Assembly: GCA_964016885.1 (NCBI GenBank)
Contig: OZ024746.1
Span: forward strand, 60,202,001 to 60,266,000
Origin: Eledone cirrhosa
Lineage: Eukaryota
Direction: 5' to 3'
DNA length: 64,000 bases
This document shows positions 46,796-60,174 of the stretch, piece by piece (the stretch's first letter is position 1; each line of letters opens with the position of its first letter). Under the pieces are notes generated by a model. That model saw nothing but the letters and a program-made list of their open reading frames with translations, made no database searches and had not been told where the DNA came from. The translations under genes and the position numbers were made by a program.

Positions 46796-48793
46796 GTAAG
46801 TTTGTTTTATTACTTTATATACTATATATTTATATAGTCACAACTAACAGCCGACACACACTGGCGGTGTTTATTTGTTTTCCATGTATATATTTGCCCT
46901 TCCTCCTTCCTCAACGCAACCATTATTATTATTATTATTATTCAATTACACTCTCTCTATATTTTTTTCTTCCTGTGATCCACCTCTCCTCTCTCTTTCA
47001 CTCTCTCCTTCACATTCTATATGTTCACCTTCTCTCTCACTCTTTTACCCTGTCTCGAAGTCTCTCTCTTCCTCCCACTCTCTCTCATTTCCCCTTTGCT
47101 CTATTCTTATCTCTTCCCATTTTTCTTTGTTCATTTTCCCCATCTGTCTTTTTGTTCTCCTGTCTGTCTTCACTACTTTTATCTTCCTAAATTCACATAA
47201 TGGGTAAAATGCTCAGGGTCGCCTCTTGTGTGGGAAATTAACTGTAATGTGAAAATAGCATATAATCTATTAATATCTACCTATTTACTCTCTCTACGCG
47301 CATATATCCTTGTGTGTGTGTGTGTGTGTGTGTGTGTGTATATATATATATATATAATTAAATATTAGACAGGAACAAAAAACAGAGAGGCAGTACAAAT
47401 GGTAGTTTATTAGTTTCACGCTTATCTAAACTTCTTTGTTTATCTGCCTTAAATTTTAATTTAGATCTCTTTTATGTAACTTTCTCTCATATGTATATAT
47501 CTATCACTTTCATTGTCACATGTTGTCTTACTCTTACTGTCTCATATTCCATCCTTTTCTCTCAAATACATTCCTACTCTATCCATTCAACCTATCTCCC
47601 TTTCTGTCTTCATATATTTATATTATGATCGTCATGTAACATCCATTTTCCTTCTATTCATTCTCTCTCAAACCCAAACACTCCCACTTTCTCTATCCAT
47701 TCTACCTATCTCTCTCTATGTCTGTGCGTGTGTGTGTGTGTGTGTGTATATATATACAATCGACCCCCTCTCTCTATATCTCTAGAATACCACCTCCTAC
47801 TCTCTCAGTACAACACTATCTCACACCAACACAACATATTTCGTTATATATATACTACCAAATAAAATCACCCACACCCAACTCTCTCTATGTATTCTTA
47901 CACACGCACACTTACCAGCACCCCATTCTACCTACCTAGGTAGGTAAAGCGGGTTTGTTTTGTTGTGATAATCACTTTATTCCACGTGTTCTTCACCACA
48001 CCACACTGTGCACTTTTAGTTCGATACATTCGCTCTCTCCTACATATACAAAATGGCTAACAAACGAAACGCACCTATCCATTAATATACACACATATAT
48101 ATATGCGTGTGTGTGTGTTCGCGTCTATGTATGTATATATGTATATATATATATATATATATAAGCACTCAATACATATATAAGTAGATAACAAAATTTA
48201 TATTTTAGAAAGAAAGGTTGACGAAAGTGACTGCGAAATTACGCTTGGGATCTGTTTACAATATATACGTTAAGACCTTCTTCCTGCTATTTCAAGCGTT
48301 AAACTAATATATTTCTACCATATACCGTTTGTTTTATTATTTCTGATTACCTTTTATATATATATATGTATATATATATATGTATGTATGTGTGTGTGTA
48401 TAAAAAAACGATCAAGTTTAAAGTAATTGGATTTTTATTGTATCGACCTGTGTGTATAATTGTTTCGACTTTTAACACAAGGCCAGCAATTAAATCAGTG
48501 CATTACTGGTATATATATAAATATAATGAATTGACGGATGAACCCCTGTGGTTGCTCGCTCTAGTAGAAGTAGCAGCTAAATCTTCGAATGCCAACCTAC
48601 TACCATCTTAAGATGACGTATATCCATTCTAAAAATGACACAATAGATGAGATGGTCGCGACTGGAACACTTTTATTCATTGTGGCTAAACGAATGAGGC
48701 TTCTACGTGGTCTCTTGACTTGCCTGGCATATCAGCCATTACTCCCTCAATTCACACTATAACAGCGAAGACCAATTTGCTACAGAAGTCATC

Positions 48794-50990
48794 TATATAT
48801 ATGTGTGTGTGTGTGTGTATGTGTGTATATATATACATACATATATATATATATATATATACATATATATATATATACATACATATATATATATATACAT
48901 ATATATATATATACATATATATATATACATATATATATATATATATACATATATATATATATATATACATACATATATATATATATATACATACATATAT
49001 ATATATATATACATACATATATATATATATATATACATACATATATATATATATATACATACATATATATATATATATACATATATATATATATACATAC
49101 ATATATATATATATATACATATATATATATATACATACATATATATATATACATACATACATATATACATACATACATACATATATATATACATACATAC
49201 ATACATATATATATACATACATACATACATATATATATATATACATACATATATATATATATACATACATATATATATATATACATACATATATATATAT
49301 ATACATACATATATATATATATACATACATATATATACATACATATATATATATATACATACATATATATATATATACATACATATATATATATATACAT
49401 ACATATATATATATATATACATACATATATACATATATATACATACATATATATATATATACATATATATACATACATATATATATATATACATATATAT
49501 ACATACATATATATACATACATATATATACATATATATACATACATATATATACATACATATATATATATATACATATATATACATATATATACATATAT
49601 ATATATATATATACATATATATACATATATATACATATATATATACATATATATATATATATATATATACATATATATACATATATATACATATATATAT
49701 ATATATATACATATATATACATATATATACATATATATATACATATATATACATATATATATATATACATATATATATATATACATATATATACATACAT
49801 ATATATATATATACATATATATACATACATATATATACATATATATACATACATATATATACATATATATACATATATATATATATATATACATATATAT
49901 ACATATATATACATATATATATACATATATATATATACATATATATACATATATATATATACATACATATATATATATACATACATATATATATATATAC
50001 ATATATATACATATATATACATATATATATATATACATACATATATATATATACATATATATACATATATATATATATATACATATATATATATATATAC
50101 ATATATATATATATACATATATATACATATATATATATACATATATATATATATATACATATATATATATATATATACATACATATATATATATATATAC
50201 ATACATATATATATATATATACATACATATATATATATATATACATACATATATATATATATATACATACATATATATATATATATACATATATATATAT
50301 ATACATACATATATATACATATATATACATACATATATATACATATATATACATACATATATATACATATATATACATACATATATATACATACATATAT
50401 ATACATATATATACATATATATACATATATATATACATATATATATATATATATATACATATATATATATACATATATATATATATATATACATATATAT
50501 ATATATATATACATATATATATACACATATATATATATATATACATATATATATATACATATATATATATATATATACATATATATATATATATATACAT
50601 ATATATATATATATAAACATATATATATATATATATATAAACATATATATATATATATATACATATATATATATATATATATACATATATATATATATAT
50701 ATATACATATATATATATATATATATACATATATATATATATATATATCATATATATATATATATATACATATATATATATATATATATACATATATATA
50801 TATATATATATACATATATATATATATATATACATATATATATATATATATATATACATATATATATATATATATATATACATATATATATATATATATA
50901 TACATATATATATATATATATATACATATATATATATATATATATACATATATATATATACATATACATATATATATATATACATATATG
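48794..50990. repeat. compound (TA)n/(TACA)n microsatellite
   Basis: Directly visible. Confidence 0.98.
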
Positions 50991-50991
50991 T

Positions 50992-56399: not shown

Positions 56400-58994
56400 G
56401 TATATATATATATATGTATGTATATATATATATATGTATATATATATATATATATGTATATATATATATATATATGTATATATATATATGTATATATATA
56501 TATGTATATATATATATATGTATGTGTATATATATATATGTATATATATATATATGTATGTATATATATATATATGTATGTATATATATATATGTATGTA
56601 TATATATATATATGTATATATATATATATATGTATATATATATATATATATGTATATATATGTATGTATATATATATATGTATATATATATATATGTATA
56701 TATATATATATATGTATATATATATATATATATGTATATATATATATGTATATATATATATATGTATGTGTATATATATGTATGTATATATATATATATG
56801 TATGTATATATATATATATATGTATATATATATATATATATATATATGTATGTATGTATATATATATATGTATGTATATATATATATGTATGTATATGTA
56901 TATATATATGTATATATATATATATATATATATATATATATATATATATATATATATATATATGTATGTATATATATATATATATGTATATATATATGTA
57001 TGTATATATATATATATATGTATATATATATGTATGTATGTATATATATATGTATGTATATATATATATATATGTATATATATATGTATGTATGTATATA
57101 TATATGTATGTATATATATATATATATGTATATATATATGTATGTATGTATATATATATGTATGTATATATATATATATATGTATATATATATATATATG
57201 TATGTATATATATATATATATGTATATATATATATGTATATATATATATATATATATGTATGTATATATATATATATGTATATATATATATGTATATATA
57301 TATATATATATATGTATGTATATATATATATATATGTATATATATATATGTATATATGTATATATATATATATATATATGCATGTATATATGTATATATA
57401 TATATGCATGTATATATGTATATATATATATGTATATATGTATGTATATATATATATATATGCATGTATATATGTATATATATATATATATATATATGCA
57501 TGTATATATATATATATATATATGTATATATATATATATGTATATATATATATATATATGTATATATGTATATATATATATATATATATATGTATATATA
57601 TATATATGTATATATATATATGTATGTATGTATATATATATATATGTATATATATATATATGTATATATGTATATATATGTATATATGTATATATATGTA
57701 TATATATATATATGTATGTATATATATATATATGTATATATATGTATATATATATATATGTATATATGTATATATGTATATATGTATATATATATATATA
57801 CATATATATATGTATATATATATATATATATATATATATATATATGTATATATATATATACATATATATATATATATATATATATATATACATATATATA
57901 TATATATATATATATATATATATATATATATATATATATACATATATATATATATATATATATATATATATATATATATATATATATATATATATGTATA
58001 TATATATATATATATATATATATGTATATATATATATATATATATGTATATATATATATGTATATATATATATGTATATATATATATATGTATATATATA
58101 TATGTATATATATATATGTATATATATATATGTATATATATATATATATATATATATATGTATATATATATATATATATATATATATACATATATATATA
58201 TGTATATATATATATATATATGTATATATATATATATATATATATATATACATATATATATATGTATATGTATATATATATATATATATATGTATATGTA
58301 TATATATATATGTATATATGTATATATATATATGTATATATGTATATATATATATGTATATATATATATATATATATGTATATATATATATATATATATA
58401 CATATATATATATGTATATATATATATGTATATATATATATATATATATGTATATATATATATATATATATACATATATATATATGTATATGTATATATA
58501 TATATATACATATATATATATGTATATGTATATATATATATATATATATATATATATATATATATATATATATATATATATGTATATATATATATATATA
58601 TACATATATATATATATATATGTATATATATATATATATATACACATATATATATATATATATGTATATATATATATATATACATATATATATATGTATA
58701 TATGTATATATATATATGTATATATGTATATATATATATGTATATATATATATGTATATATATATATATATACATATATATATATGTATATATGTATATA
58801 TGTATATATATATATGTATATATATATATGTATATATATATATACATATATATATATGTATATATGTATATATATATATGTATATATATATATATACATA
58901 TATATATATGTATATATGTATATATATGTATATATATGTATATATATGTATATATATACATATATATGTATATATATATATATGTATATATATA
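56400..58994. repeat. 2.6-kb compound (TA)n microsatellite
   Basis: Directly visible. Confidence 0.98.
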
Positions 58995-60174
58995 CATCGT
59001 TCCTGTGTCAGTGTTGAACAAAAAGGTGACGTGGTTGCCTTAACACCGTATGGCATAAATTCAGGCTGTTCAGTTTGTTTACAAACGAACAAAGCGACGT
59101 TAGCGCCGCTAAACTGATACGTGCATATATGTATGTGTACCTGTATGCATATGTATATATATATGTATATATATATATATATGTGCATGCTACTGTACGT
59201 CTGTATACATATATGTATGTACGTATACATGCATACTTACATTTAAGTAAGTGCCATACTAAGAGTGAGAAATGAAATTTCGTTTTCATTTTGTTTCAAT
59301 TTATCGTTTTCGGTATGCCTGACCGATTTAACTCACTCAATATGCAAATTAGGCTGCTCAGCCGTTAATTTTCATAAGGAAAGTATATACTTTCGAACGT
59401 TCAACTATCTGGCAGATGGGTAAACGGTGCTGATGATAGCTAACAAGCTTGAAACTAGTACATCGTTCCTGTGTCAGTGTTGAACAAAAAGGTGACGTGG
59501 TTGCCTTAACACCGTATGGCATAAATTCAGGCTGTTCAGTTTGTTTACAAACGAACAAAGCGACGTTAGCGCCGCTAAACTGATACGTGCATATATGTAT
59601 GTGTACCTGTATGCATATGTATATATATATGTATATATATATATATATGTGCATGCTACTGTACGTCTGTATACATATATGTATGTACGTATACATGCAT
59701 ACTTACATTTAAGTAAGTGCCATACTAAGAGTGAGAAATGAAATTTCGTTTTCATTTTGTTTCAATTTATCGTTTTCGGTATGCCTGACCGATTTAACTC
59801 ACTCAATATGCAAATTAGGCTGCTCAGCCGTTAATTTTCATAAGGAAAGTATATACTTTCGAACGTTCAACTATCTGGCAGATGGGTAAACGGTGCTGAT
59901 GATAGCTAACAAGCTTGAAACTAGTACATCGTTCCTGTGTCAGTGTTGAACAAAAAGGTGACGTGGTTGCCTTAACACCGTATGGCATAAATTCAGGCTG
60001 TTCAGTTTGTTTACAAACGAACAAAGCGACGTTAGCGCCGCTAAACTGATACGTGCATATATGTATGTGTACCTGTATGCATATGTATATATATATGTAT
60101 ATATATATATATATGTGCATGCTACTGTACGTCTGTATACATATATGTATGTACGTATACATGCATACTTACAT
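58995..60174 (+). mobile_element. retrozyme-like tandem array, 466-bp unit x2.5
   Basis: Units at 58995, 59461 and 59927; the HHR spans the unit junction. Confidence 0.85.
59423..59467 (+). ncRNA. minimal type I hammerhead (repeated at 59889-59933)
   Basis: AACGGTG-CTGATGA-T AGCT AACA AGCT T-GAAACTAGTA^CATCGTT. Confidence 0.88.

Follow-up and report, generated by a model that had tools for sequence, protein, structure and literature searches.

Two tandem hammerhead ribozyme arrays, candidate retrozymes, in the apparent first intron of a probable cephalopod BCL7 gene

Are hammerhead ribozymes within the apparent first intron of a gene passengers that borrow the transcription of their host, or do they cut the pre-mRNA that carries them? 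The question is raised by a 64,000-nucleotide (nt) stretch of contig OZ024746.1 (assembly GCA_964016885.1, positions 60,202,001 to 60,266,000; hereafter the window), in which an earlier note had placed four sense-strand hammerheads behind the first coding exon of BCL7, a SWI/SNF subunit. Retrozymes are defined here as at least two tandem units with a hammerhead, following a preprint (10.64898/2026.07.22.740005); promoter-less production by host read-through has been stated as their model (PMC7761336), and release of retrozyme RNA from intronic co-transcripts has likewise been described (PMC6765202). Fast intronic ribozymes reportedly block splicing, while slow ones leave it intact (Fong 2009, as cited in PMC10919898). 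The reading that appears probable is that the locus carries two unrelated retrozyme families of the non-LTR kind (LTR, long terminal repeat), inserted independently and in sense orientation into (TA)n tracts of a long BCL7 intron, and mobilised and processed by the mechanism set out below.

All four hammerheads are present on the plus strand at the places given by the earlier note, whose numbers are the starts of helix I, the cores beginning 6-7 nt later. They form two pairs, namely A1 (55924..55966, core from 55930, cut predicted after 55960) and A2 (56234..56276, core from 56240, cut after 56270), and B1 (59424..59466, core from 59430, cut after 59460) and B2 (59890..59932, core from 59896, cut after 59926). 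Each contains the core CUGAUGA...GAAA, with the CUGANGA and GAAA boxes, the NUH triplet and the end-closing helix I of the type I form, and the predicted cut sites space units of 310 nt (A) and 466 nt (B). A strict descriptor, composed after the motifs had been seen, retrieves exactly these four in the window and none in 1000 block-shuffled windows. In A and B alike, helix I has 6 base pairs (bp) followed by a 3-nt bulge and more pairing, helix II consists of a U-U mismatch at its base plus three pairs and carries the loop UAACAA, and helix III, next to a GUA cut triplet, is short (1-2 bp) and self-complementary (ACGCGU in A1, ACUAGU in B1). The U at position 1.7 and the A that closes the 6-nt loop 2, a pair with a tertiary role, are both kept. 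In a test for compensatory change between two sequences, A and B, both partners have changed in the inner pair of the palindrome and in six of the nine pairs of helices I and II; elsewhere the units show no detectable relation, 8 of 200 shuffles scoring equally high. Judged by the definition in PMC4209133, A and B have the canonical type I geometry. A conserved reverse-Hoogsteen contact in hammerheads is mentioned in PMC6155905.

Four ribozymes do not mean four insertions here, since they fall into two arrays that were inserted independently. Array A (55708..56399, plus strand) holds 2.2 copies of its unit with 34% GC, and array B (58993..60174, plus strand) 2.5 copies with 36% GC, with no mismatch between copies in either. 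In each, two or more tandem units carry a full type I hammerhead apiece, arranged head-to-tail with no central region and no organisation into LTR, primer-binding site and polypurine tract. No plus-strand frame of 100 amino acids (aa) occurs inside unit A or B, and the open reading frame (ORF) for reverse transcriptase (RT) plus GIY-YIG that marks an autonomous Penelope-like element (PLE) lies neither in nor beside either array. The flanks are TA microsatellite throughout: a (TA)n/(TATG)n tract to the left of A (54350..55707), a (TA)n tract between the arrays (56400..58992) and another to the right of B (60175..61661). Unlike in other retrozymes, this setting hides any target-site duplication. 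Array B starts at its predicted cut site (58995), with 2 nt common to the TA flank, whereas array A starts mid-unit; the 3′ ends of both fall at an internal AU-rich point, which in B lies just past the third copy of an AU-rich hairpin of about 48 bp (59115..59229, plus strand, repeated 466 and 932 nt further on). As a separate observation, this hairpin is long enough to serve as a substrate for RNA editing or Dicer. As circles, both units are predicted to fold strongly, at -67.8 kcal/mol against -48.4 +/- 5.1 in shuffles for A (z -3.8) and -152.4 against -104.5 +/- 4.8 for B (z -9.9), none of 60 shuffles being as low in either case. Scans for Pol III boxes gave only loose matches in the wrong order. 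A bacterial promoter scan, irrelevant to this host, gave 4 sites where 3.6 were expected, and the common orientation was discarded as a sign of bias, two sense insertions arising by chance in 1 of 4 cases and other intron elements lying on both strands.

Public sequencing runs extend this picture for family A. A search with array A returned six rows from four studies, none of them recorded as RNA, which have no bearing on expression, and unit A was compared with contigs, of unrecorded kind, from four of the six runs. In run X2, 638 contigs match unit A, 341 of them at 99% or more, with varied flanks, and the summed depth on the unit is 1.8-6.2 x 10^5, a figure that is not a copy number. Family A, the one examined in this respect, is dispersed and multi-copy, as retrozymes are. 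The single variant above 5% in X2 sits in loop 2 and leaves its final A intact. At least 10 X2 contigs pass into (AT)n behind 56099 (7 of the 40 loose-end rows listed), a position that is the end of the internal AU run where array A also stops, and a single contig of depth 2.65 connects 55960, the cut site, with 56006, which hints weakly at a template that had been cut. Runs X1, X3 and X6, which bear three other organism labels, each contain one exact 340-nt cyclic contig (depth 10-15, no variants), which corresponds to window positions 55805-56114. The simplest reading of these is trace host DNA, although a circle or a low-copy array would be indistinguishable from it; movement of the exact 310-nt unit between species is less likely. 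In separate scans, the hammerhead core pattern matched no stretch in viral contigs, and three stretches in metagenome contigs, all devoid of helices I and III, were set aside as chance. Altogether, at the level of sequence, A and B display every testable feature of non-LTR retrozymes, the multi-copy evidence coming from A.

How efficiently such ribozymes would cut is suggested by their weak points. Position 10.1-11.1, usually G-C, is an unpaired U-U in A and B, a departure from the type I form that weakens a hammerhead without excluding it, to judge by axolotl Amex2, which cuts with the same variant. Amex2 has this U-U at the base of helix II and Amex1 the palindromic weak helix III (PMC7229834), whereas A and B unite both weak features in one ribozyme. 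Because of the mismatch and the palindrome, A and B probably cut as dimers. The canonical metazoan type I form needs a second copy for good cutting (PMC4209133), and monomers of axolotl retrozymes cut by 6% and 22% in an hour, dimers far better (PMC7229834). Two closed monomer hammerheads are predicted to cost 15.7 (A) and 16.9 (B) kcal/mol, local rods forming around each ribozyme, in a folding model that scores neither kissing dimers nor tertiary contacts. By model and analogy, the A and B ribozymes look slow.

The host side of the question depends on BCL7. Its first coding exon (46704..46795, plus strand; 30 codons plus TG) encodes the N-terminus of the protein (Pfam BCL_N, E 1.1e-14; PDB matches to BCL7A/B, E about 1e-9), and the peptide is 100% identical over 31 aa in four proteins among the 150 matches listed, the two named ones being from the cuttlefish Sepia pharaonis and the annelid Owenia fusiformis. 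The ATG is intact and a GTAAGT donor in phase 2 begins at 46796, directly after the exon. Among 150 relatives, 141 contain the exon-end motif, of which 81 go on with EK[KR]W[VI] and 21 end there. No exon 2 follows in the window, as the earlier note had observed: a hidden Markov model (HMM) built from 82 exon-2 peptides, which scores about 1e-15 on its own training proteins, had no match in any of the six frames (lowest E 0.61), 113 protein tails compared by tblastn gave nothing credible (best E 0.011), and a DNA pattern of acceptor plus exon-2 start with up to two mismatches had four loose matches, none on the plus strand past the donor. BCL7 therefore has either an intron longer than 17.2 kb or an orphan exon 1. 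The intact ATG, the donor and the full protein identity favour a working gene, which likely has an intron of more than 17 kb; long introns filled with transposable elements (TEs) are expected in genomes of this sort. The apparent intron 1 (46796..64000, plus strand) would accordingly span at least 17.2 kb, with exon 2 beyond the window. The hammerheads lie behind the donor on the BCL7 strand, and the arrays are likely to fall within the BCL7 transcript.

On the favoured reading of two retrozyme insertions, a Penelope-like RT/GIY-YIG protein would nick TA-rich DNA and prime reverse transcription at the internal AU-rich point of the unit, and, with a circle or multimer as template, copying would continue past one unit and produce the 2.2 and 2.5 copies. 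BCL7 transcription would read through the arrays and yield a two-ribozyme precursor from each, in which the two hammerheads would pair via their palindromes and slowly cut out monomers of 310 or 466 nt. These, with 5′-OH and cyclic-phosphate ends, would be circularised by a host RtcB-type ligase; dimeric cutting to monomers with such ends, closable by RtcB, has been described (PMC7229834). Slow cutting would fall mostly after commitment to splicing or within the excised intron, and would therefore change BCL7 mRNA output little. The release of 310- and 466-nt RNAs by host read-through, proposed in the earlier note, fits the anatomy, with two ribozymes per array on the BCL7 strand, and is already the published, standard model. 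Its further suggestion, that cutting of the pre-mRNA has consequences for BCL7, finds no support, given two weakening features of the ribozymes, active folds that lie uphill and the reported sparing of splicing by slow ribozymes. Little effect on BCL7 is to be expected, a real one being improbable by analogy.

Mobilisation of A and B by PLEs is probable by analogy, and the window contains a likely example of the class responsible. Upstream of BCL7, on the minus strand, lies a PLE (41300..44045) with RT, a CX4CXXC linker and GIY-YIG, whose coding region (41718-44045, 775 codons) is nearly intact, with one in-frame stop. At 41335 it has a 3′ hammerhead-like motif with a U-U mismatch and a palindromic helix III like those of A and B; its best database relatives are 65% identical, and the named ones are mostly bivalve or filed under marine symbionts. 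The host is taken to be a mollusc and, from general genome features, probably an octopus. The cysteine linker marks Neptune and Nematis PLEs and has been suggested as what directs Neptune elements towards microsatellites (PMC8557442), and with an anole PLE in vitro, reverse transcription starts internally at AT-rich nicks (PMC11167929). Neptune and Nematis PLEs, with the hammerheads of their pseudo-LTRs (pLTRs), are like A and B in that they target microsatellites, insert in tandem or partial tandem, have a 3′ end at an internal point and carry dimer-type hammerheads; they differ in that A and B have no ORF, and no sequence link to a PLE was found. The minimal hammerhead form of PLEs also has a long helix II, in contrast to the 6-bp helix I and 4-position helix II of A and B. 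A second, 3′ PLE fragment (53640..53945, plus strand; Pfam GIY-YIG, E 3.6e-7) matches the PLE at 41718-43628 with 51% identity across 93 aa.

Several observations weigh against two retrozyme families processed in this manner. No window hammerhead reaches the gathering score of an Rfam model, the nearest, Hammerhead_HH9, giving 19.2 and 18.5 bits (E 0.025 and 0.044) where its gathering score is 52, so that A and B fall under no Rfam family. In the folding model, the nested double hammerhead is less stable than the ensemble by 8.6 kcal/mol in A and 13.0 in B, only one of nine Xenopus retrozyme dimers cut in vitro (preprint 10.64898/2026.07.22.740005), and the hammerhead of an anole PLE failed to cut in the absence of protein (PMC11167929). 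Neither unit resembles in sequence the ends of a PLE anywhere in the window; comparison of the units with the flanks of the other window hammerheads likewise yielded nothing beyond 15-19-nt matches. Reads from a high-copy family, used to polish the assembly, could account in part for the identity of the array copies, no exon 2 was found in the 17.2 kb after the donor, and the slow-cutting step, with its small change in mRNA, could be wrong, the rates being taken by analogy. The Rfam result would suit chance matches in AT-rich repeats, a notion made negligible by the empty shuffled windows, the double-sided changes between A and B and the start of array B at a predicted cut site. A reading with more of a claim, if still a doubtful one, sees in the arrays what is left of the terminal repeats of truncated autonomous PLEs, or else tandem duplications made locally in the DNA, in either case with no passage through a free RNA monomer or circle. 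Xenopus retrozymes do resemble PLE pLTRs, with local tandem amplification under discussion (preprint 10.64898/2026.07.22.740005), and array A has the PLE fragment 1.7 kb upstream on its own strand; yet this fragment has no sequence in common with A or B, no ORF occurs in or beside either unit, and the start of B together with the faint junction contig of X2 suggests templates of cut RNA.

Two further alternatives, equally unlikely and slightly more so than PLE remnants, bear on BCL7 itself. The arrays might lie outside its transcript, through an orphan duplicate of exon 1, an early end of transcription or a mis-join across the kilobase TA tracts. No downstream exon occurs in 17.2 kb, there are AATAAA signals at 47861 and 53879, and several TA tracts are multi-kb; against this stand the intact ATG, the consensus donor, the complete protein identity to cuttlefish and annelid and the expectation of long TE-filled introns, and two AATAAA in 17 kb of AT-rich DNA are few. 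Alternatively, the ribozymes would cut co-transcriptionally before exon 2 is made and lower the BCL7 output of the allele, as the intronic ribozyme of Cpeb3 does. They lie on the sense strand, two per array, with tertiary-contact nucleotides kept, and at least 4.1 kb beyond the last cut site leaves a time window. The Cpeb3 half-life of 2-3 min matches the 9.9-kb distance, and blocking that ribozyme raises mRNA (PMC10919898); a coral retrozyme cuts at about 0.8 per min (PMC7229834). The mussel rate is however about 0.1 per min and axolotl monomers are weak (PMC7229834), exon tethering can let splicing cross a cut intron (Dye 2006, cited in PMC6097652), and the U-U mismatch, the 1-2-bp helix III, the dimer requirement and the uphill folding all speak for slower cutting.

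Comparison with known systems places A and B among the metazoan non-LTR retrozymes of coral, mussel and axolotl (PMC7229834), with which they share tandem non-coding units, a GC content below 50%, one type I hammerhead per unit, a strongly self-paired circular fold and PLEs in the same genome. Unit B, at 466 nt, exceeds the 170-400 nt of that account and falls inside the 51-972 bp of the preprint, in which introns are overlapped by 42-44% of the retrozymes of Xenopus, a share that amounts to depletion once length is normalised, with orientation unreported in the accessible text (10.64898/2026.07.22.740005). Amniote intronic ribozymes (HH9 in RECK, HH10 and the HDV-like ribozyme in CPEB3) are also found in host introns, and HH9 is the nearest Rfam model. 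They are however single conserved motifs with a stable fold, whereas A and B consist of mobile-family copies in tandem and show neither conservation nor co-option; that the copies are identical and belong to a high-copy family speaks against conservation of long standing. A literature search found no report of a cephalopod retrozyme by title or abstract start, subscription papers being mostly out of reach and supplements a place where examples may be held, and a term search of the accessible text of the Octopus vulgaris repeat paper (PMC13282606) did not find the word 'ribozyme'. No title among the matches listed in a search on the orientation of intronic hammerhead elements dealt with that subject.

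The remainder of the window is rich in related material. A loose scan of the same 64 kb gave eight further hammerhead-like matches, and hammerhead-like elements are therefore common in it. Two related PLE-like insertions occupy 19186-25548, with inverted terminal copies (19186-19798 and 22176-22787; 23139-23903 and 24784-25548) and hammerhead-like motifs at 22695 (plus) and 19278 (minus). A 199-nt element present in two inverted copies that are 98% alike (17807-18005 and 30748-30946) carries a well-formed hammerhead with a long helix II at 30868 (plus) and 17885 (minus). Between TA tracts, a tandem repeat with a 638-nt period (13148-14189) has two minus-strand cores that resemble a hammerhead, at 14110 and 13471, and is possibly a third retrozyme-like array. 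A perfect 588-nt palindrome, 100% self-inverted (18488-19075), may be a fold-back insertion or an assembly artefact. Within the apparent intron, a 5′-truncated LINE with its reverse transcriptase region (51761..53379, plus strand; Pfam RVT_1, E 2.6e-30) precedes the arrays, and another LINE (61664..64000; RVT_1, E 9.4e-32) is antisense to BCL7. The microsatellites switch strand bias, from TACA-type before the LINE (48826-51759) to TATG-type after it (54350-61661), and in the pre-mRNA the two kinds of tract could anneal with each other like long inverted repeats. Identical 173-nt SINE-like copies are found at 39309-39481 and 50997-51169, one of them within the apparent intron. An Rfam search by E-value over 55700-60200 returned 251 matches, of which the best 150, almost all microsatellite-like miRNA models, were rejected.

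With this locus, retrozymes gain two families from what is probably a cephalopod genome, with a clear insertion anatomy in which the 3′ end falls at an internal AU-rich point in TA tracts and the 5′ end at a ribozyme cut. By analogy, the arrays appear to be ordinary passengers that may borrow a host promoter, rather than regulators, and the locus is one of probably many such intronic copies. Were cutting fast, it would offer a natural test of whether host read-through feeds retrozyme circles and of whether mobile intronic ribozymes cost the host mRNA. There is a slim chance that sense intronic arrays are promoter-less sources of circles whose fast dimer cutting makes this a dosage allele of BCL7; if so, a genome-wide shortage of sense intronic dimers would measure the cost.

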